Shown: positions 17,658-53,470 of the stretch, piece after piece | How the letters are laid out: each line of letters starts with the position of its first letter | How positions within the stretch are numbered: position 1 is the stretch's first letter | Source: Candidatus Krumholzibacteriota bacterium | Lineage (GTDB): Bacteria > Krumholzibacteriota > Krumholzibacteriia > JAJRXK01 | Reading direction: 5' to 3' | NCBI GenBank assembly: GCA_963727455.1 | Contig: CAVSGG010000004.1 | Span: forward strand, 1 to 64,000 | Length of the DNA stretch: 64,000 nt | Notes under the pieces: model-generated | What the model was told of the DNA's origin: nothing | The model's input: only the letters and a program-made list of their open reading frames with translations | Database searches by the model: none | Made by a program: the position numbers and the translations under genes

Positions 17658-17807
17658 GCCCGGACCTTTCACTGAAGTCTGTGGAGAGTGTAGGAGGCCA
17701 GCGCGGTGGAGTCGAGATATCATAGGCGAAAGGGAAGACCCCGTGTGGAACTTGTCGCAGTGGGGGGAGTTCTCCTACCCTCAGCTCGTCCCGAGCGGGA
17801 GACCATC

Positions 17808-19145
17808 GTGCAAAGAACATCCAGAATATTTCTCTGGGCCATCTTGGTCCTCTTGGGTGGCCGGCTTGGCTTCCGAGGGTACGAGGTGGGCAGCTTCGCG
17901 CAAGCTGCGACTCTTGGCGAAGAGGGAAGTTCTGGTGAAGAGGCCAATGCCGGCGAAACGGCGGATTTCGCCGGAGCTTTCGCCTATCGCTTAGCCGGCC
18001 GCGCGGTGTTGCCAGCGAACACCTTTCGTAAGGGCCCAAGCTGCGGGCGCAAAATCTCCTCGCAAAAAGGAGTCGTTGTTCCCATTTCCGACAAGCAGCC
18101 GATCCAGGGCTTTTCGGACCTCGCGATTCATCCCCAAGGAGGACTCTGGGCCCTCAGTGACAACGGCTTTGGCTCGCGCGAGAATTCGCCGGACTACGTG
18201 TTGGTTCTCTATCATCTGCGACCGGATTTCGAAAACGGTATCATCACGGTGCAAGATCTCGTTGAACTGAGCGACCCCCGGCACCTCGCCGGATTCGCCT
18301 TGGTGGCCGATCACAGCTTCTACCCCGGAACTGACGATTCCGTCGATGCACGAATCAAAACTCGCCGCCTGCTCACCGGAGCCGATTTCGACCCGGAGGG
18401 ACTGGTGGCCCGGCCTGACGGCAGCTTTTGGCTCGGGGATGAGTTCGGCCCTTTTCTTCTGCACGTGAATACGCGGGGCGAGCTTCTGTCGGCTCCGGTG
18501 CCGACGCCGGGGGTGGAAGCTCCCGAAAATCCTTTTTTGAACGGGCGCATCGCCAACCATCCTTCGAGCGGTGGCTTCGAAGGACTATGCGCATCGGTAG
18601 ACGGCAAGCTTCTCTATGGTCTGCTCGAAAAGACCGCCGCGGGGGATCCGGCAAGAACTCTGCGACTCTACCGTTTCGATCCCATCCAGGAGAAGTTCGT
18701 GGGTAAGCCACCGTTCTTGCTCTATCCCCTCCATGGATCGAGTGACCGTTACATTGGCGCGGTGGAGGCGCTCGACTCCACGACCGTGGCCGTTCTCGAA
18801 CGGGATAACGAAGAGGGAAGTGCTGCGCGCTTCAAGAGGATCTACCTCGCGCATCTCGATCAAAGAGAAGGCGGCATCCTGCACACGAACGAGTTGGCGG
18901 ATCTCTTGCGGATTCCCGACCCGGTGGGGATGGCGGCCAAAGTCGAGGGTGCGCGGGCGCCCGCCACGCTCGCCATGCCCTTCATTACGCTCGAGGGACT
19001 GGCCAAGATCGATGACCACACTCTGGCCGTGTGCAATGACAACAACTTCCCTTTCAGCGTTGGTCGGCACGAGCGGGAGGGCCGACCCGACGACAATGAG
19101 ATCATCCTGCTTCACTTCGAACACACTCTGGGATCTCATCGCTAG
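17808..19145 (+). CDS. Esterase-like activity of phytase family beta-propeller protein
   Basis: QPIQGFS, LSDNGFG, DFDPEG, GDEFGP, SGGFEG and NDNNFPFS motifs; N-terminal hydrophobic segment. Confidence 0.85.
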   Translation: MQRTSRIFLWAILVLLGGRLGFRGYEVGSFAQAATLGEEGSSGEEANAGETADFAGAFAYRLAGRAVLPANTFRKGPSCGRKISSQKGVVVPISDKQPIQGFSDLAIHPQGGLWALSDNGFGSRENSPDYVLVLYHLRPDFENGIITVQDLVELSDPRHLAGFALVADHSFYPGTDDSVDARIKTRRLLTGADFDPEGLVARPDGSFWLGDEFGPFLLHVNTRGELLSAPVPTPGVEAPENPFLNGRIANHPSSGGFEGLCASVDGKLLYGLLEKTAAGDPARTLRLYRFDPIQEKFVGKPPFLLYPLHGSSDRYIGAVEALDSTTVAVLERDNEEGSAARFKRIYLAHLDQREGGILHTNELADLLRIPDPVGMAAKVEGARAPATLAMPFITLEGLAKIDDHTLAVCNDNNFPFSVGRHEREGRPDDNEIILLHFEHTLGSHR

Positions 19146-21766
19146 TCGCGGCGACTCGCCAGAAAACGGAAGATCTCGCGAAGGACGGTCAGGTGGCCGG
19201 CCGGTTTCACGCCTAGCGCGATGTTGGCATCTGCGATGGCGAAGGCCTCCTTCCATTGTCCAATGAGCACCCGCCACATTTCCCACGCGGAGTGGCGTGG
19301 ATCGTAGAAATGAGTGGCTTCCCCGGTGAGCCCATTGAGCTCGAGAATCTTGAAGTCTCGGCCGGCTCGGAGAGCGTCTTCGCTCCCGGCGCGAAGGTCG
19401 AAGCGTCCGAAGAAAAAGCCCTCGTAGCTGCGCGCGATACGGTCGATGCGCTTCTGCAGTTCGCGGCTCAAGAGGTGTCGACCGTCCAAAAAGAGCGCTC
19501 CCCGGGCGTGGGAGCCGAGTTGGGCCAGCTGGACCGACTCACCTTTGGGAATGATTTCGAAGAGCCGATCGGCGAGATGAGTCATGTAGGCCTTCGCCAT
19601 GCACACCGCCCTCTTGTCGTCCAAAATGAGCTCCTCCAGGCGGCGCTTACCGTCCCCCACCACAACCGGCAGCCGTTTCTCGGTGAGGGAGAGGATCTCT
19701 CCGCGCTCCTGGTTTGGGAATCGCCGGTAAAACACGCCGTATTCTGGCCCCGAGACGTACTCCTGGAGCAAGAGGTCTTCCTCGTGGCGCTCGTTACACC
19801 GCTCCGCGCGGCGCGAGCACAATTCCTCCTCGCTATGCACGATGAAGACGTGTCGGCTGCGTTCCCCACGATCCGGTTTGAGGACGAGGGGAAAATCGAG
19901 TCGCTCCTTGGTCATGAACTCACGTACCCGCGACAGGACTTGCGGAGTTGTGAGGGACTTGGGGAGAAGCAAAGTACTTGCGACGAACTCGCGGCTCAGG
20001 GCGAGACCCTGGAGGATCTCCCATTTGCTCTCACCCACGAGGCCCCCCAGGGAAATGGCGGGATTTACCGCGGTGACCCGGGCAAATCCTCCGCGACGCA
20101 GCGAGAGCAGGATGATTCGAAAAATCACCGGAAAATAGACCGCCCAGTGGGGCCAGAATTCCGACTTGGTGAGACGCCGCCAGCGTCCCACGAGGAGCCT
20201 GCGACCGCGGTGGGTGAAGGCGGGCACGACACCCCTCAGGAACAGCATCACGGTGAGGAGCGTGAGCACCAGCACCCAGAAGGCATTGTGCTCGAACTTG
20301 GCCCACAGGGGAGCGGCGCGCTCTCCGATGATCAGCGTGAGCCCCAGCAAGAGCGGAGTCCACAGGGCGACCGCGACAAAGAAGTACAGGGCGAAAATCC
20401 AGTAACGCGCTCGCACCGCTCCGGCCAACAAATAGGTGGGAAGTCTCGTGCCCGGAATGAAGCGGCTCAGCAGGATCACCATCATGCCTCGTCGCTCGAA
20501 CCAACTCGCGGCCAGGCGCAGGTCTTCCTCGCTGACGAACCACTTCCAAGGGGCACGATGTACCGCGGAGCGCCCCAGGGCCCTGCCGGCGAGATAGAGC
20601 AGTTGGTCCCCCAGGTAAATGCCCAGAAAGCAGGCCGAGAAACCGGCCAGAAGCGGCAGGCGTCCGTGCGCGATCAACAGACCGGTGGTGATGCAGGTGA
20701 TGTCCTCGGTAATGAAGGTTCCGATGACGATGAGCAGAAGGAGGATGAAGAGCGAGAGCCCCTCCGCCGGCTGTACTTTGATTTTGGAGAAGGATTCGCG
20801 AGCGGCCGCAAGCCTCTTTGGCGAGGACTCGTCCTTGCTCAGCGCCTCGCCGCTTTCGACTTTGCCGAAGAAGTCGTCCAGATCGGCGGCAACTTGCTTC
20901 TCCCTGGTCCACAGAATGAAGTGGTTTCCCGAAGTGTAGACGCGCAGCTCGCTCTGAGGTACGAGCCGGTGATGTTCACGCGCGGCGGCAAAGGGCACCA
21001 GGGAGTCGTTACGCGCGTGAAGAATGAGCAGCGGAGGACGAAATTTCGCCAAAATTCCGCGGAAAGGGCGTTGATCGGTGTCGAAGAAGTTTCGCGCGTA
21101 GGCCACGCTCAGAACATCGTGATCGAGTAGGCCGAAATGCGGGGTGAGTTCTTCCAGTCCCCAGAGAAATACCAGCTGAATTCCGTGGATGATGTGGTTG
21201 AGTTCGTAATTTCCCAGGAGTTCCAGTTCCTGAACGCCGATAGAACTCACCATGGAGAGCGAAGCGACTCGAGCCGGGGCGCGTTGATAGAAATCGAGCG
21301 CGACTCCTCCACCCATGGAAAAAGCGACCAAGTGGACGCGCTCGATTCCCAACGTGTCGAGAAGTTGCAGGCAATAATCGGCGTGAGCAAGGGTGGAATA
21401 GTCGGGGACATGGTGGTCGGACAGGCCGAAGCCGGGCAAGCTGGGCGCGATCACGCGGCGATCCTTCGCCAGCGAAGACTCCAGCTCACGGAAGTCTCGC
21501 AAACTTCCCGGCGATCCGTGGAGCAACAGGACGGGGGTCGTAGCCTGGGCTCCGTTTTGCGGACCGAGATCCTTGTACACCACGCGGACCCTCTGCCGCG
21601 GATCGCGATTCGTATCGCGGACCGCCTGCGCCATGAACTCCGAGCAATCGGGAGGGATTGCCGGCACCTCGTGGTGGATACGACGGTACACATGAGAGGA
21701 GAGAAGGAGGACGAGGTAGACCAGCAGGAGCCAGCGCTTTGTGTGACCTCGCAAAAGGGAAGTCAT
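19142..21766 (-). CDS. Three-domain fusion: alpha/beta hydrolase + DedA/VTT membrane domain + ATP-grasp ligase
   Basis: HGSPG, AFSMGG, D(NDSLV) and H(GNHF) triad; DedA motifs GIYLGDQLLY and SRFIPGTR; ATP-grasp motifs LVLKPDRG, LLQEYVSGPEYG, GRFDLR, ILELNG; ATGA overlap with the upstream gene. Confidence 0.88.
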   Translation of the reverse strand: MTSLLRGHTKRWLLLVYLVLLLSSHVYRRIHHEVPAIPPDCSEFMAQAVRDTNRDPRQRVRVVYKDLGPQNGAQATTPVLLLHGSPGSLRDFRELESSLAKDRRVIAPSLPGFGLSDHHVPDYSTLAHADYCLQLLDTLGIERVHLVAFSMGGGVALDFYQRAPARVASLSMVSSIGVQELELLGNYELNHIIHGIQLVFLWGLEELTPHFGLLDHDVLSVAYARNFFDTDQRPFRGILAKFRPPLLILHARNDSLVPFAAAREHHRLVPQSELRVYTSGNHFILWTREKQVAADLDDFFGKVESGEALSKDESSPKRLAAARESFSKIKVQPAEGLSLFILLLLIVIGTFITEDITCITTGLLIAHGRLPLLAGFSACFLGIYLGDQLLYLAGRALGRSAVHRAPWKWFVSEEDLRLAASWFERRGMMVILLSRFIPGTRLPTYLLAGAVRARYWIFALYFFVAVALWTPLLLGLTLIIGERAAPLWAKFEHNAFWVLVLTLLTVMLFLRGVVPAFTHRGRRLLVGRWRRLTKSEFWPHWAVYFPVIFRIILLSLRRGGFARVTAVNPAISLGGLVGESKWEILQGLALSREFVASTLLLPKSLTTPQVLSRVREFMTKERLDFPLVLKPDRGERSRHVFIVHSEEELCSRRAERCNERHEEDLLLQEYVSGPEYGVFYRRFPNQERGEILSLTEKRLPVVVGDGKRRLEELILDDKRAVCMAKAYMTHLADRLFEIIPKGESVQLAQLGSHARGALFLDGRHLLSRELQKRIDRIARSYEGFFFGRFDLRAGSEDALRAGRDFKILELNGLTGEATHFYDPRHSAWEMWRVLIGQWKEAFAIADANIALGVKPAGHLTVLREIFRFLASRRD

Positions 21767-22533
21767 CCTCCTACCCTCTGCGCCGGGGCGAAGCCCTTTT
21801 TGACTGCGAGATGGAGAGCGTTGGCAAATTCGCGCCGGCTCTCGCGGTTCTCCACGCCCTCGCCGAATACGACGTGCGCGTGAAAGCTTGGCATTTGTAA
21901 GAGCCGGTAAAGATGGTCCGCGAAGGTCATGTCCCCCCACCAGCAGATAGACTGCGAGGCAGGTGGCCAATCCTCGTGCGCCTCGTACCGGAGGGCGGCC
22001 GCGTGCACTGGATAACCCAGGCGCAAGGGCACGTCGAAGAGCGAAGACTTGAACCGTAAAACATTCGAGCCGTCGCTACTTGTTCCTTCGGGAAAGAAAA
22101 CGATCCCCGCTCCGTCATGAAGCGCGCCCTCGATGAGTTCGAGAACCTGCGGAATGTCGGCGTGGTTCGTCCGGTCCACGAAGATCGTGTTCACTTGGCG
22201 GGCAAGAAATCCTATGACCGGCCAGTGGGCCACTTCCGCTTTCGATACGAAAAAGGCATCCAGTTGGGTGGACAAGAGCACGATGTCCATGTAGCTGAGA
22301 TGATTGCTCACCAGCACGAAGGGCGGGTGGGGGGCAATTCCCTCCCGAGTGATCCGCATGCCGCAGATCAAAGCGGTTCCCCTCGCCCAAGCTCGGAAGC
22401 TGAGGACCTTCAGCTTGAGGACGGCACCCTGCCATGCCATGAGGATGAAACGTGAAGGGAATAGGATAGCTAGAACGCCCAGAGTCCACGTAGCGAGCCC
22501 GAGGAGACGCAAAATCGCACGCAGATGCTTCAT
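21763..22533 (-). CDS. PlsC-family acyltransferase (OlsA-like / lysophospholipid acyltransferase)
   Basis: NHLSYMD (HX4D), FVSKAEV, FFPEGTS, CWWGDM; ATGA overlaps at both ends. Confidence 0.92.
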   Translation of the reverse strand: MKHLRAILRLLGLATWTLGVLAILFPSRFILMAWQGAVLKLKVLSFRAWARGTALICGMRITREGIAPHPPFVLVSNHLSYMDIVLLSTQLDAFFVSKAEVAHWPVIGFLARQVNTIFVDRTNHADIPQVLELIEGALHDGAGIVFFPEGTSSDGSNVLRFKSSLFDVPLRLGYPVHAAALRYEAHEDWPPASQSICWWGDMTFADHLYRLLQMPSFHAHVVFGEGVENRESRREFANALHLAVKKGFAPAQRVGG

Positions 22534-23477
22534 ACACGTGTGCCGAGATCGATCTCTGTGAGTCGCAGGACTTTCACTAGATCGACTTCGGTCAGGTCGA
22601 TCAGGGCCAAGAAGTCGATCGTCTTGAAATGACGATCCAACGCGGGCTGGCTGCAGATGCGAGCCCCGTATCTCAGATAGGTACGGAAGAGTGGGGGAAC
22701 GCGCGACTCTTCCCAGCCCTCGATAGATTCGTATTCCTCGTGACAGGCATACGCGGGATGCGCTTGGGTGCAGATCGAGGGATGCAGATGCCCGTTCTGC
22801 CGCAGGTACTCCATCATGCGCGCACCTTCGGCAGGATCCTGACTGGTCAGAGAGCAACAGCCGAAGAAATAGCGCCGGCGGTTGTGTAGGGCGTAGGCGG
22901 CCAAGCCCTTCCACAGAAGCTGTAGGACCTTGCTCTTGCGATGATCCTTGTGAATGCACGCGCGCCCGGTCTCCACGGCCTGCTCCAGAATTTCCGCTGG
23001 CCACGAGCGCATGTCGTACTCTTGCGCGGTGTAGAATCCGTGTCCCACGCTCGCCATCTGCGCGACCTGAAGCCGGTAGGTGCCGACGGTCGAGACCGTG
23101 TCGAGATCTTCGACAATCATGTGATGGCAGTGATCGTCGAAGCGGTCGCGGTCGAGACCCGTGGCATGGCTCTCATCCAAGCCCTCACCCAGTTCAAGGT
23201 TGAACACCTCGTAGCGCAGTCGCAGCGCGCGTTCGAGTTCCTCGGAATCGGTCGCGAAACGGCAGCGGTAGTGACCGTCGACCACGCTCCAGCGGGGTAG
23301 AAACTCGCGACCCACCGGGTAGACCATGCGCCAGGCAGCCCCGGCCGCGGCATCTTCCTTGGAGTCTTCGCTCTGAGTTCGGGTCGAGCCGGGTGCAAGG
23401 GGCTCTGGATCTGGCATGGTTCTCACGGATCCGATCGACTTGGGGGTGGAGGGATTGGCGCCTCTCCGTATGGCCAT
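22530..23477 (-). CDS. GNAT N-acyltransferase, OlsB-like (Acetyltransf_5)
   Basis: RLRYEVFNLELGEG, DRDRFDDHC, VGTYRL, ETGRACIH, FFGCCSL, PPLFRTYLRYGA, PALDRHF. Start is 23477 (AGGAGG SD) or 23417. Confidence 0.88.
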   Translation of the reverse strand: MAIRRGANPSTPKSIGSVRTMPDPEPLAPGSTRTQSEDSKEDAAAGAAWRMVYPVGREFLPRWSVVDGHYRCRFATDSEELERALRLRYEVFNLELGEGLDESHATGLDRDRFDDHCHHMIVEDLDTVSTVGTYRLQVAQMASVGHGFYTAQEYDMRSWPAEILEQAVETGRACIHKDHRKSKVLQLLWKGLAAYALHNRRRYFFGCCSLTSQDPAEGARMMEYLRQNGHLHPSICTQAHPAYACHEEYESIEGWEESRVPPLFRTYLRYGARICSQPALDRHFKTIDFLALIDLTEVDLVKVLRLTEIDLGTRV

Positions 23478-23604
23478 TCGCCTCCTAATTTCCACTCTTT
23501 CGGTCCCGGCGTCCAGTGCGCTCTCTCGCTCTCCTTGCGAGGCCATCGCGCTCGGGGTATCGTGCGAGAGTGAGTTTTGTCTCTTCTCTCGCGAGGTTGA
23601 CCAT

Positions 23605-23832
23605 ATGAAGATCAGCATCCAATACTGCGTGCAATGAAACTATTTGCCCCATGCCGCCAGTTTGGCGGAACGAATCCAGAAGAAATTCAAGGTCAAACCC
23701 GATTTGATCGAAGGACGTAACGGAATTTTCGATGTGAAGCTCGACGGCGAGCTGATCTTCTCCAAGTATGAACTCGAACGGTTTCCCGAAGGGGACGAAG
23801 TGATCGGGCTGATCCAGGAGAGAATCAACTGA
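23605..23832 (+). CDS. Rdx (SelW/SelT/SelH) family selenoprotein with CxxU motif, 75 aa
   Basis: MKISIQYCVQ-TGA-NYLPHAASLA...GIFDVKLDGELIFSK...RFPE. The in-frame TGA at 23635-23637 sits at the family's Sec position; the track splits this into two ORFs. Confidence 0.92.
23654..23668 (+). promoter_or_regulatory. Bacterial SECIS-like hairpin
   Basis: CCGCCA-GTT-TGGCGG stem starting 16 nt after the UGA, with a G-initiated apical loop. Confidence 0.7.
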
Positions 23833-23890
23833 TCGCCCCGTGGCCGGAGACGGCCCACGATCGACCCCGCCGGAGGCTCGAGGTGTCATC

Positions 23891-24127
23891 ATGAAGTCCG
23901 AGGTCGAGGTTGCGCGCTACACGGAAGTTCCCGAGGCTGAAATCGCCAAGGGGCTCCTGATTGCCAACGGAATCCCGTGCCGCTTGATCATCGACGACGT
24001 TGGGGGAATGTATCCCCAAATGCATCTGGGAGAGGGAATGAGACTCATCGTTCCCGAGCAGTTCGCGGAAGCGGCCCAGAAACTCCTCGCCTCCTTCGAA
24101 CAGGGCGACGAAGCTCGCCAGGACTGA
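23891..24127 (+). CDS. DUF2007-type small protein (putative signal-transducing)
   Basis: EAEIAKGLLIANGIPC...G..L.V...AEAAQKLL pattern. Confidence 0.75.
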   Translation: MKSEVEVARYTEVPEAEIAKGLLIANGIPCRLIIDDVGGMYPQMHLGEGMRLIVPEQFAEAAQKLLASFEQGDEARQD

Positions 24128-24131
24128 TGCC

Positions 24132-24926
24132 ATGAAATTCCCATTTCACCAGGTCAATGCTTTCGCGGACCAATCATTCGCGGGCAATCCGGCTGCGGTC
24201 GTGATCCTCGACGAGTGGTTGCCCGACGAGGTGCTGCAGGCCATCGCGCGCGAGAAAAATCTCTCGGAGACTGCTTTCGTGATCCCTCAGGGTGATGTCT
24301 GGGGTCTGCGGTGGTTCACGCCCTCGGTGGAGATCGACCTGTGTGGGCACGCCACGCTCGCTGCGGCCTTCGCGCTCTTTTTGGACGGACGGGCCCAGGG
24401 CCGAGAAGTCGTGTTCAAGAGTCCACGCAGTGGGGAGCTGCGCGTCCTGCGACATGATGGTCGCCATTGGCTGGATTTTCCGGCGCGGCCGCCCAAGGAG
24501 GTTCCGGTCGATCCGCTCCTGGTCGAGGCGCTCGGAATAAGGCCCGAATGGTGTGGCGAGGCGCGGGATCTGCTGGCGGTGCTGGATAGCGAAGATGCGG
24601 TCCGCGCCCTCCGGCCCGACATGGAGCTGCTGAAGAAGCTGGACGTCATGGGCGTCTGTCCCACCGCTCCCGGAAGCGAAGTCGATTTCGTGTGCCGCTT
24701 CTTCGCGCCCAAAGTCGGAGTTCCCGAGGATCCCGTGACCGGCTCGGTCTTCTGTACCCTGCTTCCGTACTGGGGCAAGCGCCTGGGGAAGGATCACCTC
24801 ACCGCGCGCCAGCTCTCCGAGCGGGGTGGCGAGGTCGTGGGAGAAATCCACGGCAACCGGGTGCACATCGGAGGTCACGCGGTGGAGACCATTCGCGGGG
24901 AATTGATGTTGCCCTCACTTTCGTGA
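24132..24926 (+). CDS. PhzF family epimerase/isomerase
   Basis: GNPAAV, NLSETAF, RWFTP.VEIDLCGHATLA, EDPVTGS. Confidence 0.93.
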   Translation: MKFPFHQVNAFADQSFAGNPAAVVILDEWLPDEVLQAIAREKNLSETAFVIPQGDVWGLRWFTPSVEIDLCGHATLAAAFALFLDGRAQGREVVFKSPRSGELRVLRHDGRHWLDFPARPPKEVPVDPLLVEALGIRPEWCGEARDLLAVLDSEDAVRALRPDMELLKKLDVMGVCPTAPGSEVDFVCRFFAPKVGVPEDPVTGSVFCTLLPYWGKRLGKDHLTARQLSERGGEVVGEIHGNRVHIGGHAVETIRGELMLPSLS

Positions 24927-43007: not shown

Positions 43008-43823
43008 CTAGAAATACTGACCGCCGTCGACGCGCAGGATCTGGCCCGTGACGTGGGCGCCTCCGTCTCCGAGCAGAAAATGCACGGCGCGGGCGATGTC
43101 GACGGGCTCGGCAAGCCGCCCCAGCAGTACCTCCCGCAGCGCCTCCTCCTTGACGCTCTCGGGAAGATCACGCGTCATGCTAGTGTTGACCATCCCGGGT
43201 TCCACCACGTTCACGCGGATATGAAACCGCGCGCACTCTCGCGCCGCGCTCTTGGCCAGTCCGAGCAGGCCCGCTTTGCTCGCCGCATACGCGGTCTGTC
43301 CAAATTTTCCGCGCGAACCGTTGATGGATCCGATGAGGACGATACTGCCGCGTTCGGCTCGCCGCATGACAGGCACCGAGTGTCTGAGCAAGAGAAAGGC
43401 GCTCTTCAGATTGACTCTGTGTACCGTGTCCCAATCGTCTTCGGAGAGTTTCCAGAGCACTCCATCGCGAGCGATGCCCGCCGCATGCACGATGAAATCC
43501 AGGCGGCCGTACTCTTGCACGGTGGAAAGAACCGCGCGTTCAACGTCATGGTCAACGCTCACGTCTCCCTTCATCCAATCGAGCCTGGAGTCGGGAGGAT
43601 CCAGCAGGTCGAAACCCACTACGCGCGCGCCATGGCCGAGAAGCTCGGCCATGATGGCCTTGCCGATTCCTCCGGCCGCGCCGCTCACGATCGCGACCCG
43701 ACCCTCCATCTCCCGGGAATAGGCGGGGGAAAAATGGGCCTCGCGAATTTTGGGGGATGAAGGAGAGTTCGAAGACCTGGCCGCGTGCATGCTTCCCCCG
43801 AGTTCGATGGAGCAGTGGATCAA
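43008..43823 (-). CDS. Short-chain dehydrogenase (FabG-like); last gene of the bcr cluster
   Basis: SGAAGGIG, AGIARD, YAASK, VTGQILRVDGG; start uncertain (43823, 43790 or 43709). Confidence 0.88.
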   Translation of the reverse strand: MIHCSIELGGSMHAARSSNSPSSPKIREAHFSPAYSREMEGRVAIVSGAAGGIGKAIMAELLGHGARVVGFDLLDPPDSRLDWMKGDVSVDHDVERAVLSTVQEYGRLDFIVHAAGIARDGVLWKLSEDDWDTVHRVNLKSAFLLLRHSVPVMRRAERGSIVLIGSINGSRGKFGQTAYAASKAGLLGLAKSAARECARFHIRVNVVEPGMVNTSMTRDLPESVKEEALREVLLGRLAEPVDIARAVHFLLGDGGAHVTGQILRVDGGQYF

Positions 43824-44734
43824 TCCAGGCGTTCGCCGCCCGGAGCGTTTGCCGCGCGCTCACGCTGAAGTAGAACACGGTGCCGATAACCGCTCCACAG
43901 GGCGGCACCAAGCGCTCCGGCGTGCATCGAAAGTTCGTGCGTGTGAAAACTCATGGGCAGATCGTCCTCGGCTGCTTTCTCCCGCATCGCCTCCACCAAG
44001 CCGGCGTCCGCCGACAGGCCGCCGGTTATCACGATCTTGCCCTCTCCCCCGATTGCGCGCAAGAGTTTGACGTAGCGGCCGGCCATGGAGAGGTGGATAC
44101 CCTTCAGGATATCCTCGGTCTTGATGCCGCTGCTGACCATATTGATGACGTCGGTCTCCGCCAATACCGCGCACACACTACTCACCGATTCGGGCGTACT
44201 CGCGCGCTGCGACAGCTCTCCCACCTCATCGAGGGTGACGCCCAAATAACGCGCCACGTTTTCCAGGAACTGTCCCGAACCGGACGCGCACTGGCTCGTC
44301 ATGCGGTTGGCGAGGACGCGGCTTTGGCTGTCGACCCGCATGGCGCGCGCGTGGAGGGAACCTAAATCCAAGACTGCCTTTGCTCCGGGAAACAGGAAGG
44401 TCGCACCGCGGGCGTGAGTGGTCATGCCGTAGAAGTGTCCGCGGCGGAACTCCACCAGCTCCCCTTCGCCAGTGCTGGCGACGTAGGCCACCTCCGCCGG
44501 GCCCAGCCCTGCCTCATCCAGGGCCATCGTCCAACTCTGATCCACCACCTCGCGAAGGTCCCGGCGGCGGATGCGATCGTGGCGGTAGGAGAGAATCTCA
44601 ACCTCGGACGATCCAAGCGAACGGCTGATCGATTCGGGATGTGGGAATGCCACGATCACCGTCTTCACGGAGCTCGTTCCCACGTCCACACCGGCCGTGA
44701 TGAGAGTGTCAGTTGCGCTTGAACTCGTGGGCAT
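43820..44734 (-). CDS. bcrD: Benzoyl-CoA reductase subunit D (ASKHA ATPase)
   Basis: GVDVGT, YVASTGEGE, GHFYGMTTHARG, MTSQCASGSGQFLEN, VCAVLAETD. Confidence 0.93.
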   Translation of the reverse strand: MPTSSSATDTLITAGVDVGTSSVKTVIVAFPHPESISRSLGSSEVEILSYRHDRIRRRDLREVVDQSWTMALDEAGLGPAEVAYVASTGEGELVEFRRGHFYGMTTHARGATFLFPGAKAVLDLGSLHARAMRVDSQSRVLANRMTSQCASGSGQFLENVARYLGVTLDEVGELSQRASTPESVSSVCAVLAETDVINMVSSGIKTEDILKGIHLSMAGRYVKLLRAIGGEGKIVITGGLSADAGLVEAMREKAAEDDLPMSFHTHELSMHAGALGAALWSGYRHRVLLQRERAANAPGGERLD

Positions 44735-46064
44735 CACGTCCCCCCTTCTTCGCGAAGAGCGCGGCACCGAGGGCGCCAGTGTAGATGGAGTCGGGTGAAA
44801 TGTTGATCGTGCGCTCGCCGTAGTTCTCCGCGATGAGGCGCTCCACGGCGGCGACCGCGGCGGGATTGCGCGCGACACCGCCGGTAAAGGTAAACTCGTC
44901 GTCGACGCCTCCCGAGCGAGCGAGCAGAGACATTGCTCGCAGAATGATGGCCCGGTGGAGGCCGGCGAGAATGTCCTCGCGACGCTGCCCCATCGACAGC
45001 CGATCGCGAAGCTCCGCCCCGGCGAACACGGTGCAGGTGCTGCTGATCTTCACCTTCTTGCGAGCTTGCTGCGCGAGGGGTCCCAGCTCGTGGAGGCCCA
45101 AGTTCATTTCGTCCGCGATGTAACCCAGGTAGCGACCGCAGCCGGCGGCGCAGCGATCGTTCATCTGAAAGCTGGTTACGATACCGTTTTCGTCGACCTG
45201 GATGGCTTTTGTGTCCTGGCCCCCGATGTCGAGCACGGTTGCGGTCCCGGGAAACATTTCGTGCGCGCCCAGTCCGTGGCAGAGAATTTCGCTGCGAATC
45301 TGCTCGCGAGGGAAGGGAAGGCGCGCGCGCCCGTAGCCGGTGCCAACGGTCGCGATCTCTTCGAGTTGCGCTTGAGCCCCTTCGCTCACGCACGCACGCA
45401 GCTCGGTCTCGATGCGAGGAGTCCACGAGGGATCCTCGGCCAGGCGCGATACGGTCGATGCGAGAGCGGATTGGATGTTCTCGATGAAGCCGGTTTTGCC
45501 GGCGGTGTTTTCCACCGGCAGAATGGCGGCGTCGTACAGGCCGCAGAGCTCCTCGAAGCCGATGCCGTTCTTGGAGGCGTGGTCTTCGGCGAGCTTCATG
45601 TATTCCGCGCCCGCGAGATCGCGAAAGAAGTCACTCTTTCTCTCATGGCCCGGCACGAAGGCCTCTTTCATGCGCACGGCCATTTCGTCGACGATCAAGT
45701 CCACCAGTCTCTCGAGCTCACTCTGGCGATTCTCGTAGCGCGAGGAGCTTGCGGCGCGATGTAACTCCGTTTGCAGTCGTCCCAGCTGCTCGAGGTACTG
45801 TTGGAAGCGAAAGCTCAGTTCGAGGACGGGAAGGACCTTGTCCGTGACCTGCACGAGGGTCTCGTGGTCTCGCACGAACGAGCGCAGCAGCGAGAACCGC
45901 GCCTGAACGATGGCCTCCGAACGGGCAATCGCCGCGGCCACGTCATAATTGCTGCGGCTGTTGGTGATTCCCTTTCCCAGAACCCGCTGATTCTGGTCCA
46001 GAATAACGGCCTTGGTGGTCGTTGAACCCAGATCGATCCCCACGTAGATCTTCCAGCTCTTCAT
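44709..46064 (-). CDS. bcrA: Benzoyl-CoA reductase subunit A (ASKHA ATPase)
   Basis: GIDLGSTTTK, GITNSRSNY, TGYGR, DIGGQDTK, MNDRCAAGCGRYL, STCTVFA; ATGA overlap with bcrB. Confidence 0.94.
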   Translation of the reverse strand: MKSWKIYVGIDLGSTTTKAVILDQNQRVLGKGITNSRSNYDVAAAIARSEAIVQARFSLLRSFVRDHETLVQVTDKVLPVLELSFRFQQYLEQLGRLQTELHRAASSSRYENRQSELERLVDLIVDEMAVRMKEAFVPGHERKSDFFRDLAGAEYMKLAEDHASKNGIGFEELCGLYDAAILPVENTAGKTGFIENIQSALASTVSRLAEDPSWTPRIETELRACVSEGAQAQLEEIATVGTGYGRARLPFPREQIRSEILCHGLGAHEMFPGTATVLDIGGQDTKAIQVDENGIVTSFQMNDRCAAGCGRYLGYIADEMNLGLHELGPLAQQARKKVKISSTCTVFAGAELRDRLSMGQRREDILAGLHRAIILRAMSLLARSGGVDDEFTFTGGVARNPAAVAAVERLIAENYGERTINISPDSIYTGALGAALFAKKGGRDAHEFKRN

Positions 46065-47368
46065 GCGCGCGCCTCCGTGCGTCCCTTTTGCTCGAGCATT
46101 TGCAGATAGCTCTCGATGCGGTTTTTGATGTTCGCGGAGGAGAAATAGCGGGGGTCCACCAGGTCGCTCTCGATGAAGCCGCCGGGCACGCCGGTGCGTT
46201 CCTCGATCTGACGCAGAATCAAAAGTTGACCTGCACTGAAGGAATTGCAGCTCTTCACGCTGTTGATCAAGAAGCCGTGCGCGTTGTATTCGCGCACGTA
46301 GGAGGCCAGAAGGTCCACCCGGGAAGGCAGACCCAAGTTGGTGTAACAGCCCAGGCAGTACTCGGCCAAGCTCTGAAGGGGCCGACTTGGATCGTGGCGA
46401 AAGCCCCGGTCGTAAAGTCCGCCCACCTTGGTGTAGGAGCTTGCGACCACGACCGCGCCCTCGTCGTAGAACATCTTCCAGAACGCGCGGAAACTCGTCC
46501 AGTTGGGCGGACCTTCCACCACCAAGCGGAAGCGCTCGTTCTTCGCCTCGCCCTCGGGGGTGACCGGCCCCTGCTTGCGGCGCAGTCGCTCCTCGATCTC
46601 GCGCCGCAGGGCGGCGTAGTAGTCGACCGCCTCCGGTGTGCCACGGAAGGCAGTGAACATGGGACCAATGTAATAGACGCCACCAAAATAGGCGTCGATC
46701 GGGGAGGGGACGTTCTTGGCGCTCTCGAGTACCCACACCAGATCGTCCTCCGCCCGGGCGGAGAGTTCGAGCATCTCTGCAAGGCGGCCTTCGTCGAACT
46801 TCTTGCCGCTGATCTTCTCGAGCTTGGGAATGACCTCGGTTTTCAGCTGATCGACCACGTACTCGATCTGATGTTCCTGGATCGTGCCGTTGGATTGATA
46901 GGGAACGTGTAGCATGCTGGTCGGTGCGCCATACTCCTCGCGCAGAAGTTCGAACCACTTCATGAAGGTGAAGCAGCCGGTGTAGGAGAGGAGCAAGAGG
47001 TCGGGGTCGGGCAGCTGCGTTCCCGTGGGCGAGATGTTGCCCTTCTTCAGCATGCCCAGATCGCACTTCACGTAGGTGCAGACGTCTTCGGAGTGCCCGG
47101 CCTTCTCGGCTTCGGCGATGTAGCCGGCGGAGAGACCGCGCATCCCGGACTGGAGGGCATTGATTTCCGGCAGCACGGGCAGAAGATCGAAGGAGCGGAT
47201 GAGCTCGGTCAGATTGCCCGGAACGAAGGTGTACACCGACTTGCGGCCCTCTGCTTTGGAGTTCTGCAGGGCAAGATAATGATCGGCGATCATCTTCTTC
47301 TGCAGATCCATGCTGAGGTCTTTTTGAACCGCGGCGCCGCTTGGCCGCTTGGTATCCGCCATCGTCAT
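46061..47368 (-). CDS. bcrB: Benzoyl-CoA reductase subunit B
   Basis: FVPGNLTEL, DVCTYVK, SYTGCFTFMKW, EGPPNWT, KSCNSFSAGQ. Confidence 0.94.
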   Translation of the reverse strand: MTMADTKRPSGAAVQKDLSMDLQKKMIADHYLALQNSKAEGRKSVYTFVPGNLTELIRSFDLLPVLPEINALQSGMRGLSAGYIAEAEKAGHSEDVCTYVKCDLGMLKKGNISPTGTQLPDPDLLLLSYTGCFTFMKWFELLREEYGAPTSMLHVPYQSNGTIQEHQIEYVVDQLKTEVIPKLEKISGKKFDEGRLAEMLELSARAEDDLVWVLESAKNVPSPIDAYFGGVYYIGPMFTAFRGTPEAVDYYAALRREIEERLRRKQGPVTPEGEAKNERFRLVVEGPPNWTSFRAFWKMFYDEGAVVVASSYTKVGGLYDRGFRHDPSRPLQSLAEYCLGCYTNLGLPSRVDLLASYVREYNAHGFLINSVKSCNSFSAGQLLILRQIEERTGVPGGFIESDLVDPRYFSSANIKNRIESYLQMLEQKGRTEARA

Positions 47369-48543
47369 ACTCCCTTCTCGTTCCACAGACGGATGGAATC
47401 GGCGAAGGTCCCGGTCTGCTCGCGAATGACCGCGAATTGGCCCATGTCTTCGGAGTACTTGAACTGGGTGTAGGGAATGCCCTCGCGCTCGAGAGCGGCC
47501 GCGAGCATGGGTTGGTCGAGAAGGGCGGGATCGCAGAAGCTGGGTGCGGCGAGGATCACCCCTTCGGCCATGTTAACGCGCACCGAATTCACCAGCGAGC
47601 GGCCCTTGTCGCCCTCTGGTTCGTAGCGCGAGGCGGTGGAAGCGCTGTGCTCCAGATACGAGTCCACCAGATTCTGCATTGGATCCCCTTCCACGGGGAC
47701 CTCTTCGGTGAGCCAACGCAGCCCCAAGAGCATGTCATCATCCACGATGAAGCAACCGGCGAGTTCGAGCGTCTTGAGCAGGCCGATCGGGGGCTGTTCA
47801 CAGAAAGTCCCCACCACGACCACGCGACTCAAATCCATCTCCACGCGCTCGCTTTCCTGTCGAGCAAGTTCGCGATAAGCGCGCAGGAGAAGCGTGTGCT
47901 CCTCGGGGGGGAGTACATTGCCCGCGCGCACGACCGGATACATCTCGTAGCTGGGATACAGCCAGGGCTCCTTGCTGCGCGCCGCGTAGAGCGCGGCGAG
48001 CTCGCGCCGGTTCTCGTTGTAGACCTCGATGCTGGCACGCAGCGCCTCGTCGCGAATGGTTTGCCCCGCCAATTCTTCGAGTTCGCGCTTCAGCTCTTCT
48101 AGTTCGTGACGCCAGAACAGCCCACCTACCCCAGGAGCGAAATTCTGGGGCACGTCGACATAGCGCACGTAGCGCTCGGGAAACAGCAGCTTCCACATTC
48201 CCGAGAGATTTCGGATCACATCGCAGATGGAGGGGAAGAGCATGCCGTCCAGACAATCGAGGCGCCCGCTCAGGGCGAGTTCGATGGTAGACCGCGGAAT
48301 GTGACAGATGTAACTCTGGAAGAAGGCATCGCCGCGAATGATTTCGAGATCCTCGCCTCCGCCCATGATTCCCACGGGCAGCATTCCGGCCGCATGAATG
48401 ATCTCGCGCGGCACGTAGATCGGAAGATGGCCGATGGCCTTCGCGCCGGGATGTTCTTCCTTCCACTGATGGACCGATGTGAGAGCCAGATCCTCGTGCA
48501 GTCCCGCGGTACGCTTTACGAGTTTGGCCAATTCCCGGTTCAC
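47365..48543 (-). CDS. bcrC: Benzoyl-CoA reductase subunit C
   Basis: GDAFFQSYICHIPRS, FPSICDVIRNLSG, FCEQPP, PSFCDPALL; GTGA overlap with dch. Confidence 0.94.
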   Translation of the reverse strand: MNRELAKLVKRTAGLHEDLALTSVHQWKEEHPGAKAIGHLPIYVPREIIHAAGMLPVGIMGGGEDLEIIRGDAFFQSYICHIPRSTIELALSGRLDCLDGMLFPSICDVIRNLSGMWKLLFPERYVRYVDVPQNFAPGVGGLFWRHELEELKRELEELAGQTIRDEALRASIEVYNENRRELAALYAARSKEPWLYPSYEMYPVVRAGNVLPPEEHTLLLRAYRELARQESERVEMDLSRVVVVGTFCEQPPIGLLKTLELAGCFIVDDDMLLGLRWLTEEVPVEGDPMQNLVDSYLEHSASTASRYEPEGDKGRSLVNSVRVNMAEGVILAAPSFCDPALLDQPMLAAALEREGIPYTQFKYSEDMGQFAVIREQTGTFADSIRLWNEKGV

Positions 48544-49337
48544 AGCTTCATTCCTTGATCGTCGTTCCATCGCGGTGCTCGTTTTTCCAGGAAGGCGCGA
48601 ATGCCCTCCTCCGCATCGGGCTGATCCATCAGTTCCTCGAGGTAGAGATGTTCGAGTTCCGGAAGGTCCTCGTGCACTGCGGTCAGGAGCGCGCGGCGCG
48701 AAGCCTTGCTCGCGTAACGGAGCGCGGGCGCCGAGCGCGGCAGAAACTCGTTCTCGAGCAGGGTCGAGAGGGAGGCGTCGAGCTCACCGTCCGGTGCGAG
48801 CCGAGCGACCAGTCCCGATTTCTGCGCCTCGCTTCCCGTGAGGCTGCGTCCGGTGAGTACCAATTCGAGAGCCCGGCTGGCCCCGATACGGACCGGGAGC
48901 AGTGCTGCGCCGGCGGGGGGAAAGACTCCCAACTTGATTTCGGGGAGCCCCAGGCTGGCGCTCTCTTCGGCCATGAGGAGATCACAGCCCAGTGCGAGTT
49001 CCAGGCCGCCGCCCAGACACTGTCCGCGCACGGCGGCGATGGTGGGCGCGCAGCTGGTGAGAAGCGCGCTCAAGAGGGTTCGCAGGCGATTGAGGGCCTC
49101 GCCGATCTGAGCGGGCAAGTGCTCCTCCACGCTGGCCCCGAAGCTGAAGTGGGGACCGCTAGCTCGGACCACGATGGCTCGCAGTGACCTGTGCTCACGG
49201 AGAGACCTGAGGGCGCTCGTGAGTTCCTCCGTCATGGTCTGATCCAGCACGTTCGCTTTGGGGCTGTTGAGCCAGAGGCTCGCGACTCGGTCGTCGTTCG
49301 AGAACTCGACTCTCACTTTCTTCAGTTCCACGCTCAT
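48540..49337 (-). CDS. dch: Cyclohexa-1,5-dienecarbonyl-CoA hydratase
   Basis: Crotonase fold with PKANVLD, GPHFSFGASVEEH, CLGGGLE, PEIKLGVF; bcr context. Confidence 0.9.
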   Translation of the reverse strand: MSVELKKVRVEFSNDDRVASLWLNSPKANVLDQTMTEELTSALRSLREHRSLRAIVVRASGPHFSFGASVEEHLPAQIGEALNRLRTLLSALLTSCAPTIAAVRGQCLGGGLELALGCDLLMAEESASLGLPEIKLGVFPPAGAALLPVRIGASRALELVLTGRSLTGSEAQKSGLVARLAPDGELDASLSTLLENEFLPRSAPALRYASKASRRALLTAVHEDLPELEHLYLEELMDQPDAEEGIRAFLEKRAPRWNDDQGMKL

Positions 49338-50428
49338 CCCTCCTCGATCCACGGCGCGACCTCGCGCATCAGAGGCTCGCCCCAGCGGGCACCCTCGGCG
49401 AGCCGGCGACGCAGGAGGGGGAAGTCGGCCTCACGCTGATCTCGTGTTCCGTAATGGAAGGCCCGGAAGCCGCAACTGGCTTCGGTCATCATGTTTAAAC
49501 TCAGCCAGGCGCGATTGGTTTCCTTGTTGGAGTTCCAGTGTTCCAACTTGTGTTTCCGTAGACTCTCGATGGTCTTGGTAAGGCAGTCGGGCATGGTATA
49601 CAGGAGGTCCGTGCACAGAGCCTCGATGAGTTCGTCGAGCTTGCTGAGATTCACTTCGCCCTTGGCGAGGAGTTCCTTTCCCTTCGTGCGTTCGTTTCCC
49701 GTCTTGAATTCGCCGTGCACGATGCGGCCGAACTCGTCCAGGTAACGGTCCGTGATCACCAGAGGGTTGGCCACGAACTCACCGTCGACGAGCAGGGCGG
49801 GCGCGATGTCGGTGAGTCCGCCCAAACGATAGAATCGGTGCGCACTCCACGGACGGCACAGAGTTCCGCTCATCATCGCGCTTTCCATGCCCACGAAGAG
49901 CGGCAAGAAATCGGTGCTCCCGCCGTCGGGGGCGGAGCCGTGCTTGGGGCCGGCCTGACTGAATACGGCAAGGTCGCTGGCGACGGTAAAATCACAGGCC
50001 ATGCCGATCTCTTGTCCCCCACCCACTCGCATCCCGTTGGCCCGGCAGATGACGGGCTTGTCGCAGTACAGAATGGCGCTGACCATGTCGTTGAAGAGGC
50101 GCATGTACTGCCGATATTCGCCGGGAGCGTTGGCATAGACTTCGGCGTACTCGCGCGTATTTCCGCCCGAGCAGAAGGCGCGCTTCCCCACTCCGGTGAA
50201 GATCACCGCGACCGCCGCGCGGTCATTGCTTGCGGCACGAAAGGCGAGAATGATCTCCTTAATGCTGTCGGTGGTGTAAGAATTCAGTTCCTCGGGATTG
50301 TTGAGCGAGATCCATACGTTGTGGAGTCCCTGTGCCGGCTTTCCTTCGCGGCTTAGAACCGGTTTGTGTTCATAGAGGATGTGCCTGGGCTGGAAACTCT
50401 CGATGAGATTGTGGTCGTTCATGGTCAT
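49334..50428 (-). CDS. oah: 6-oxocyclohex-1-ene-1-carbonyl-CoA hydrolase
   Basis: NSYTT, FCSGGNTREYAE, GGGQEIG, QAGPKHGSAPDGGSTDFL, NKETNRAWL. Confidence 0.94.
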   Translation of the reverse strand: MTMNDHNLIESFQPRHILYEHKPVLSREGKPAQGLHNVWISLNNPEELNSYTTDSIKEIILAFRAASNDRAAVAVIFTGVGKRAFCSGGNTREYAEVYANAPGEYRQYMRLFNDMVSAILYCDKPVICRANGMRVGGGQEIGMACDFTVASDLAVFSQAGPKHGSAPDGGSTDFLPLFVGMESAMMSGTLCRPWSAHRFYRLGGLTDIAPALLVDGEFVANPLVITDRYLDEFGRIVHGEFKTGNERTKGKELLAKGEVNLSKLDELIEALCTDLLYTMPDCLTKTIESLRKHKLEHWNSNKETNRAWLSLNMMTEASCGFRAFHYGTRDQREADFPLLRRRLAEGARWGEPLMREVAPWIEEG

Positions 50429-53297: not shown

Positions 53298-53470
53298 GGT
53301 TGCCCCCCGAGTTCTTGAACGAAACGTGTGCGGGCGCTCGCACGAAAGACGGATCATGAACATAGAGCGACGCGGGAGCGGTTTCAAGCCAGTCAGTTTG
53401 GCCGCTTGTCGCCCCGGGATAAGAGGGGCAGAATGGTGGCGGGCAGAAACCCCGAAAGACGGGAGCTTCC

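Follow-up and report, generated by a model that had tools for sequence, protein, structure and literature searches.

Aminolipids replace phospholipids in bacteria under phosphate, acid, heat and salt stress, and the modifications made to their head groups are only partly explained. The closest described route to these lipids is the OlsB/OlsA pathway, which also exists as the bifunctional OlsF and in which a GNAT N-acyltransferase stands beside a PlsC-type O-acyltransferase. A pair of this kind is found in the stretch of DNA analysed here (the window), positions 1 to 64,000 of contig CAVSGG010000004.1 from a Candidatus Krumholzibacteriota bacterium (GenBank assembly GCA_963727455.1), and its best NCBIfam matches are OlsB and OlsA. 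It differs from the known pathway in scoring far below the equivalog cut-offs and in being coupled to a third, uncharacterised gene, which encodes a membrane protein fusing an alpha/beta-hydrolase domain, a DedA/VTT domain and an ATP-grasp domain. We propose that the ATP-grasp ligase amidates the head group of the aminolipid, that the DedA domain translocates the product and that the hydrolase trims it, the three genes forming a coupled operon for a modified, phosphorus-free aminolipid; the chance that this holds in full is put at slightly below even.

The pathway is of a known kind, aminolipid synthesis with tailoring of the head group; what is new is the partner, an unstudied tri-domain membrane protein. 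The author of the first-pass annotation of this DNA knew of no characterised protein with such an architecture. Literature searches turned up no published description of a hydrolase-DedA-ATP-grasp protein, and the feature is real, conserved and, as far as those searches reach, undescribed in print. In the available parts of two aminolipid reviews (PMC12971839, PMC11631085) the third gene is not mentioned. The text of a 2025 Journal of Biological Chemistry (JBC) paper on OlsH and OlsI contains neither 'DedA' nor 'grasp'; OlsI is, from the part of that literature available, an alpha/beta-hydrolase acting as an O-acyltransferase. The second OlsF gene of a Vibrio species is described, in what was available of a PLoS One paper (2025, PMC12186959), as the last of a putative four-gene operon, the other three genes of which are not named there.

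A direct comparison is offered by cerilipin (tauro-ornithine lipid) of Gluconobacter cerinus. The transfer of taurine to the carboxyl group of ornithine lipid is ATP-dependent, and the accessible part of a 2026 review gives its gene as unknown (PMC12971839). The cerilipin taurine transferase carries out an ATP-dependent amidation of the ornithine-lipid carboxyl, as proposed for the ligase here. The ligase family is present in the Acetobacteraceae, to which Gluconobacter belongs, in six Komagataeibacter plasmid records. The Komagataeibacter ligase, however, is a stand-alone protein encoded beside a methyltransferase, with no olsB or olsA gene within 8 kb.

The module also recalls MprF (LpiA) with AcvB/VirJ, where a cytoplasmic enzyme that adds to the head group, a lipid translocator and a periplasmic hydrolase are encoded together; the lpiA-acvB operon controls the level of lysyl-phosphatidylglycerol (Lys-PG), according to the available part of one source (PMC13197417). 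The resemblance is one of layout only. An ATP-grasp enzyme stands here in place of a tRNA-dependent GNAT-type synthase, a DedA domain in place of the MprF flippase and a generic alpha/beta hydrolase in place of AcvB, ATP would be used instead of aminoacyl-tRNA, and the linkage is to aminolipids and not to phosphatidylglycerol (PG). The six Pfam families detected in the fusion protein (E<=0.01) include neither MprF nor VirJ domains.

The individual domains have described relatives as well. The ATP-grasp ligases LysX/ArgX, RimK, the G domain of cyanophycin synthetase, GshAB and Ddl/VanA share a fold with the C-terminal domain (Z 13.6-16.1) and the signature R-x-D ... E-x-N, but their N-terminal substrate domain is replaced here by helices that probably face the membrane, and the ligase is fused or adjacent to DedA. 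The DedA proteins of COG0586 (UptA, YqjA/YghB) resemble the middle domain in their VTT domain, acid pair, arginine pair and likely N-out, C-in topology. In the available part of a preprint (bioRxiv 10.1101/2023.01.04.522824), the acid and arginine pairs are tied to the flipping of undecaprenyl phosphate, and the only COG0586 fusions named are with rhodanese and PAP2, those with ATP-grasp or hydrolase domains going unmentioned.

Three overlapping genes and a tri-domain protein

The three open reading frames (ORFs) follow each other head to tail, and the parts of the third protein are listed below them.

22530..23477, minus strand: olsB-like gene, putative N-acyl amino acid synthase (GNAT, Acetyltransf_5; Pfam PF13444), 315 aa, start codon uncertain
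21763..22533, minus strand: olsA-like gene, putative lyso-aminolipid O-acyltransferase (PlsC family; Pfam PF01553), 256 aa
19142..21766, minus strand: fusion gene, tri-domain membrane protein, 874 aa plus stop (Pfam, AlphaFold)
22530..22533, minus strand: ATGA overlap of the olsB-like and olsA-like genes, the TGA stop overlapping the next ATG
21763..21766, minus strand: ATGA stop/start overlap of the olsA-like and fusion genes, read from the sequence
21677..21745, minus strand: N-terminal membrane anchor helix, residues 8-30 (AlphaFold helix and charge pattern)
20798..21643, minus strand: alpha/beta-hydrolase domain, residues 42-323, with Ser150-Asp254-His282 (Pfam, Foldseek), probably periplasmic
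20219..20761, minus strand: DedA/VTT domain, residues 336-516, with invariant Glu354, Asp355, Arg435 and Arg441 (PF09335)
20096..20218, minus strand: linker, residues 517-557, a basic amphipathic helix and a hydrophobic Trp/Pro-rich helix, probably at the cytoplasmic membrane face
19145..20095, minus strand: divergent ATP-grasp ligase domain, residues 558-874 (AlphaFold, Foldseek, VIA-align, profile search)

Both junctions read ATGA, as the first-pass annotation had reported, and, judging by their ORF coordinates, the two closest relatives (L002 and L003) share these 4-base overlaps. The closest relatives are labelled Candidatus Krumholzibacteriota, at 86% and 78% identity. That the genes form one translationally coupled operon was judged jointly with the whole functional proposal and shares its standing, not quite an even chance. 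The host genome is a metagenome-assembled genome (MAG) of 3.46 Mb in 18 contigs, 88.85% complete, and the olsB-like gene is its sole match to PF13444.

The first protein matches the GNAT family Acetyltransf_5 (PF13444) with E 2.1e-30 and 105.9 bits against a cut-off of 22.4, and the second matches the PlsC-type family Acyltransferase (PF01553) with E 1.2e-22 and 80.5 bits. The second protein has HLSYMD (residue 78) and FPEG (residue 147), supplying both HX4D and FPEG, which we take to be the motif blocks of PlsC-type acyltransferases. In NCBIfam, the best matches of the first protein are OlsB models, at 131.2 bits against an equivalog cut-off of 320 (NF052555) and 128.4 against 350 (NF052554); those of the second are OlsA models, at 141.4 and 136.8 against 300. 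As these scores lie far below the cut-offs, the names OlsB-like and OlsA-like are as far as the sequences go, and the amino acid used is not assignable from them. The start of the first gene at 23477 is uncertain because homologues of other phyla align only from about residue 45-60. A complex prediction for the olsA-like protein with residues 330-874 of the fusion returned a score of 0.00, which is evidence neither way.

The full-length AlphaFold model of the fusion protein has a pLDDT of 89.1 and a pTM of 0.67. Residues described below as invariant are so across 71 full-length homologues. The hydrolase domain matches Abhydrolase_1 (PF00561; E 6.6e-30, 105 bits, residues 78-294) and Abhydrolase_6, and has the fold, triad and nucleophile elbow of the alpha/beta hydrolases. 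Its structural neighbours in Foldseek are generic ones, namely the aryl esterases 8pi1 and 1va4 (E ~1e-13) and C-C hydrolases. The triad of Ser150 (within AFSMG), Asp254 and His282 is invariant, which bears out the membrane-anchored Ser hydrolase with an intact triad of the first-pass annotation. The DedA/VTT domain described there is equally clear: VTT_dom (PF09335) is matched over residues 360-474 with E 8.1e-17 and 62.3 bits against a cut-off of 33.9, and conserved acidic and basic residues, the invariant pairs Glu354/Asp355 and Arg435/Arg441, lie in two re-entrant elements as in other members of the family. With the NCBIfam UptA model the domain scores 47.2 bits (E 2.5e-12), below the cut-off of 250, and it is not classed as UptA.

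The C-terminal domain is less easily recognized: with residues 520-874 alone, every Pfam ATP-grasp model stays below its cut-off, ATP-grasp_4 scoring best with 16.3 bits against 27. A profile built from 59 homologues does match PDB sequences, those of cyanophycin synthetase 2 (7ta5, E 3.9e-8; deposited under the name glutathione synthase), cyanophycin synthase and Ddl. Modelled by AlphaFold with the homologue alignment, residues 520-874 gave a pLDDT of 96 and a pTM of 0.92, and Foldseek matched this model to 7ta5 (E 7.1e-11), GshAB, CphA1 and Ddl, over a range of E 7e-11 to 1e-7. VIA-align, run over 48,161 chains, placed LysX/ArgX at the top with Z 16.1 and 15.4, the best being 5k2m (Z 16.1, rmsd 3.7 over 225 aligned residues), followed by VanA (14.0), synapsin, CphA2 (13.8), RimK (13.8) and Ddl (13.6); the L-amino-acid ligases BacD and RizA matched at 11.7 and 9.7, and 65 chains reached Z>=8. 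Sequence identity to the ligases LysX/ArgX, RimK, cyanophycin synthetase, GshAB and Ddl/VanA is 13-19%. The modelled domain has an ATP-grasp fold, which agrees with the first reading of it, and by sequence the ligase family is classed as a divergent ATP-grasp, outside Pfam coverage.

Invariant residues of this domain are Lys630, Glu675, Lys697, His753, Arg788, Asp790, Glu809 and Asn811, with both R788-x-D790 and E809-x-N811 kept throughout. By analogy with Ddl, we take all but His753 to be nucleotide- and metal-binding residues. Two motifs singled out in the first-pass annotation, AFSMG and ELNG, are present and hold the invariant Ser150 and the invariant Glu809 and Asn811, respectively. The usual alpha/beta N-domain of ATP-grasp ligases is replaced in the AlphaFold model by short helices, including 519-533 and 540-557. 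The first region is strongly basic (net charge +5.6 over residues 517-537 in the 71 homologues), and the hydrophobic Trp/Pro-rich helix region keeps Glu536, Trp538, Pro539, Tyr544 and Pro546 invariant. Such helices ahead of the ATP-grasp core may constitute a membrane-facing substrate module.

The topology of the protein can be approached from its shorter relatives. In hydrolase-less forms the first DedA helix is often closely preceded by a signal peptide, a lipobox (such as LVGC or LVSC) or an N-in anchor, so the N-side of the DedA domain probably faces the periplasm. Charge bias agrees with this: in the 71 homologues the tail before the first helix has a net charge of +2.8 and the stretch after it +0.2, and the loops 395-435 and 517-537 are strongly positive. 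So does a cysteine-accessibility (SCAM) model of Escherichia coli YqjA, which in the available part of its source has a periplasmic N-terminal region, a cytoplasmic C-terminus and two re-entrant hairpins (bioRxiv 10.1101/2021.10.18.464800). A hydrolase placed between an N-in anchor and a periplasmic entry into the DedA domain would therefore be periplasmic and the ligase cytoplasmic, a likely arrangement and the one anticipated in the first-pass annotation. The first DedA helix was also considered as a plain transmembrane pass, which was rejected on account of the signal peptides and lipoboxes that lie just before it in the hydrolase-less forms.

Linkage to aminolipid synthases across phyla

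The fusion belongs to a large family. Among 8000 scored candidates, 950 were full-length relatives at E<=0.001, the best 120 of which measure 740-929 aa and mostly show 45-50% identity. The ligase domain by itself, searched for exhaustively, has 2648 representatives at E<=0.001, of which 1071 pass E<=1e-30; the best 150 of the 2648 fall into three forms: tri-domain proteins of ~800-900 aa, DedA plus ligase of ~520-600 aa and ligase alone of ~300-430 aa. The hydrolase is evidently an optional part of the module. Hydrolase-DedA forms without the ligase (~550-585 aa) occur at at least three loci (L009:3955-5595, L013:178-1827, L016:5842-7596), and a tblastn search with the proteins of the window found no olsB- or olsA-like gene adjoining them.

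Eighty loci were compared, labelled as Acidobacteriota, Gemmatimonadota, Planctomycetota, Verrucomicrobiota, Bacteroidota/Rhodothermales, Multivoradales, Desulfobacterales, Turneriella and others. The 66 with at least 3 kb upstream were counted as informative and the other 14 set aside, three of which still show both an olsB-like and an olsA-like gene. An olsB-like gene is present at 50 of the 66 loci, an olsA-like gene at 41, either at 51 and both at 40, and nearly all lie on the same strand as the fusion (49/50 and 41/41, respectively). Chance adjacency is negligible, since such a gene is typically present once in a genome, of which a 14.5-kb locus makes up far less than 1%. In the Verrucomicrobiales an OlsF-like bifunctional gene lies directly downstream of the fusion. 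The first-pass annotation had named absence of linkage to olsB/olsA elsewhere as fatal to its proposal; fusions turn out to be linked to these genes, or to OlsF-like ones, across phyla.

Co-occurrence was assessed in samples of 151 genomes per phylum, with the ligase domain called at E<=1e-20 and one-sided Fisher tests that ignore shared ancestry; incomplete MAGs can hide genes in such samples.

Acidobacteriota, 151 genomes: ligase in 17, PF13444 in 35; PF13444 in 16/17 with the ligase vs 19/134 without, p 3.9e-11
Verrucomicrobiota, 151 genomes: ligase in 17, PF13444 in 95; PF13444 in 17/17 with the ligase vs 78/134 without, p 2.1e-4

In 12 of the 17 acidobacterial ligase genomes both genes lie within 5 kb on one contig, DedA-ligase and ligase-only forms included. 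The fusion/ligase family is genetically tied to aminolipid synthases.

Clustering of ORFs shows a larger conserved array, made up of two small genes, a gene for a ferric-reductase-TM/Rieske protein, one for a ~255-aa protein, olsB, olsA and more. After olsA come a DinB-like gene, seen at 43 loci, and a TANGO2/NRDE-like gene, seen at 38; the fusion follows, at times with DoxX behind it. The DinB-like (~180 aa) and TANGO2/NRDE-like (~245 aa) genes occur in most other phyla and in Vibrionaceae, located either in the interval from olsA to the fusion or immediately behind the ligase. Upstream of olsB, 26 loci carry a membrane redox set of two small proteins, a ferric-reductase-type TM-Rieske fusion and the ~255-aa protein, which has no Pfam family; this set may be a lipid hydroxylase or desaturase system. 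Examples are:

L011:4698-5965, L018:4492-5860, L091:9126-10438 and L092:9054-10358: DinB-like and TANGO2/NRDE-like genes
L049:1568-4298 and L060:1656-3904: membrane redox set upstream of olsB

Cultured bacteria carry the module in split form. A tblastn search found 29 plasmid or chromid records covering at least 80% of the ligase domain (Paracoccus 8, Komagataeibacter 6, Azospirillum 5, Salinivibrio 4, Vibrio 4, Variovorax 1, Photobacterium 1), and the neighbours within 8 kb were examined in six of them. Plasmid 1 of Paracoccus denitrificans PD1222 (L089:7881-10572) encodes the three parts in separate neighbouring genes, one for the ligase (PDEN_RS24485), one for an alpha/beta hydrolase (PDEN_RS25810) and one for a VTT protein (PDEN_RS24475). 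In Azospirillum, DedA and ligase form one protein; in Salinivibrio, consecutive genes encode a VTT protein, the ligase, a DinB-like protein and an NRDE protein. Vibrio sp. THAF191d (L092:7307-14023) carries eight tightly spaced genes on one strand, in the order DedA, ligase, DinB-like, NRDE-like, YHS-domain, a 150-aa protein, OlsF-like and an EamA transporter. In Variovorax (L093) a methyltransferase gene is followed by the ligase gene and directly by an OlsB-like gene, so that Vibrio and Variovorax make up the two of the six records with an adjacent synthase gene. Separate genes standing side by side for domains fused elsewhere give Rosetta-stone support to the view that the three domains work together.

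The stand-alone ligase of the Komagataeibacter plasmid (L088) adjoins, besides the methyltransferase, a gene for a Haem_oxygenas_2-type iron-containing redox enzyme. In both Variovorax (L093:6622-7932) and Komagataeibacter (L088:6974-7882), the methyltransferase gene next to the ligase gene is of the MTS type, dependent on S-adenosylmethionine (SAM).

Surroundings of the genes in the window

A phytase-like esterase gene (PF13449, E 2e-48) lies at 17706-19145 on the plus strand, in convergent orientation to the fusion gene, the ends of both reading frames sharing four bases. A phosphate-scavenging enzyme encoded next to an operon for a phosphorus-free lipid may be more than coincidence. Scans of 18800-24400 for promoters and terminators did no better than shuffled sequences, with one promoter-like site against a mean of 1.2 and five terminator-like sites against 4.8. 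Upstream of the olsB-like gene are two small ORFs, 23485-23892 and 23825-24133, which belong to no Pfam family and have matches only in the nearest relatives; they were not counted as part of the module.

Farther away, positions 43820-50428 on the minus strand hold a cluster of the 2-hydroxyacyl-CoA dehydratase type, comprising two genes for BcrAD_BadFG ATPases, one for an HGD-D component and two for enoyl-CoA hydratases. Near it, at 51591-53387, is a formiminotransferase-cyclodeaminase gene.

Proposed function and its rivals

Starting from the observed domains and the conservation of their catalytic residues, from the linkage of the genes and from the probable topology, we infer a substrate, a direction of ligation, a flipping step and a role for the hydrolase. 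The OlsB-like enzyme would N-acylate an amino acid with a 3-hydroxy fatty acid, and the OlsA-like enzyme would add a second, ester-linked fatty acid. The third protein would then act on the aminolipid or its lyso form at the inner membrane, where the amphipathic and hydrophobic helices that stand in place of the N-domain would hold the cytoplasmic ATP-grasp domain to the membrane. This domain would phosphorylate a carboxylate, most likely the free alpha-carboxylate of the head group, and join it to an amine, either an amino acid or a taurine-like compound. The DedA domain would move the lipid between leaflets, and the periplasmic Ser-Asp-His hydrolase would trim the product or turn it over. 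Amidation of the head group is favoured because the nearest ATP-grasp folds join the carboxylate of an amino acid, a peptide or a carrier-protein terminus to an amine, and the aminolipid has a free alpha-carboxylate. The make-flip-trim logic would be that of MprF with AcvB, carried out by different chemistry and unrelated domains.

The same pathway could instead run with the ligation reversed, the carboxylate of a free amino acid being activated and attached to the lipid, perhaps at the side-chain amine of a head group of ornithine or lysine type or at a hydroxyl, which would give an ester as in D-Ala-D-lactate ligase. VanA and Ddl, which activate free amino acids, rank high among the structural matches (Z 14.0 and 13.6), but the top matches, LysX/ArgX, RimK and the G domain of cyanophycin synthetase, activate the carboxylate of a larger, anchored partner, and the replacement of the N-domain by what appear to be membrane-facing helices suggests that a lipid occupies the first, carboxylate site. 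Linkage and co-occurrence fit the reversed reaction equally well, and a periplasmic hydrolase that takes off an amino acid held by an ester or amide bond would have its parallel in AcvB, which acts on lysyl-PG according to the available part of its source (PMC13197417). Reversal is, on balance, unlikely. Far less probable is a role ahead of both acyltransferases, in which the ATP-grasp enzyme makes a head-group precursor, a dipeptide or an unusual amino acid, for acylation by OlsB. The first-pass annotation had offered this as its second option, and the matches to BacD (Z 11.7) and RizA (Z 9.7) are in keeping with it; yet a soluble precursor ligase needs neither fusion to DedA nor membrane-facing helices in place of an N-domain, and the ligase occurs alongside OlsB-type and OlsF-type synthases alike, which speaks against a special acyl-acceptor specificity.

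It is also conceivable that the fusion handles some other lipid, such as a phospholipid or a polyprenyl phosphate, and that mere co-regulation ties the protein to the synthase genes in envelope remodelling, for instance in response to phosphate or salt stress. The DedA domain, with its conserved Glu/Asp and Arg/Arg pairs, belongs to the COG0586/UptA type, the phytase-like esterase gene abuts the operon, and four of the six proteobacterial records lack a synthase gene within 8 kb. Against this stand the UptA score, far under its cut-off, and a gene order with overlapping stop and start codons that is kept across phyla. A ligase for PG, phosphatidylethanolamine (PE) or polyprenyl phosphates, all of them near-universal, should moreover have no need of an aminolipid synthase, whereas PF13444 is present in 16/17 and 17/17 ligase genomes vs 19/134 and 78/134 of the others. 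We consider such a bystander role quite improbable.

Head-group amidation, the reading preferred here, has to be held against several observations that count the other way. A lipid product is known for no member of the family, and the OlsB and OlsA scores leave even the amino acid unassigned. The retained acid and arginine pairs of the DedA domain fit a phosphate-bearing lipid as well as a carboxylate. In the AlphaFold model the first DedA element is one unbroken 31-residue helix, which alone would put the hydrolase in the cytoplasm, and the separate Paracoccus hydrolase, as annotated, has no visible signal peptide. The module in the window is a reduced form: here and in the three nearest relatives it consists of olsB, olsA and the fusion only, and queries from L011 found no DinB-like or NRDE-like gene in this genome, although its incompleteness means that this does not show absence. 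Fifteen of the 66 informative loci have no synthase gene nearby; five of these are from Opitutales, and all five of those genomes have an OlsF-like gene elsewhere, as does the Turneriella genome, which likewise has no adjacent synthase. The records without a synthase gene within 8 kb are those of Komagataeibacter, Paracoccus, Azospirillum and Salinivibrio. In Verrucomicrobiota, where PF13444 is common (95/151), co-occurrence is weak evidence, and shared ancestry is left out of account in the tests for both phyla.

A wider proposal would take the DedA-linked ATP-grasp family as a whole to be the missing ATP-dependent ligases of aminolipid head groups, with the cerilipin taurine transferase as a member and the module as a make-flip-trim machine. 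This is doubtful at present, though a serious possibility. The family provides a concrete and widespread candidate for the modification of aminolipid head groups, and a lipid role is suggested for a subfamily of DedA proteins. In other phyla, bacterial relatives of TANGO2 are seen to travel with the module. Its split versions occur in cultured, tractable bacteria, namely Paracoccus denitrificans PD1222, environmental Vibrio, Variovorax and Azospirillum, and the three-gene form in the window is the smallest version, suited to heterologous expression. If the proposal is correct, amidated or dipeptide aminolipids as yet undescribed would exist in Acidobacteriota, Gemmatimonadota, Planctomycetota, Verrucomicrobiota, Bacteroidota, Krumholzibacteriota and Pseudomonadota, and these bacteria would possess a tRNA-independent counterpart of MprF/AcvB for phosphorus-free lipids.

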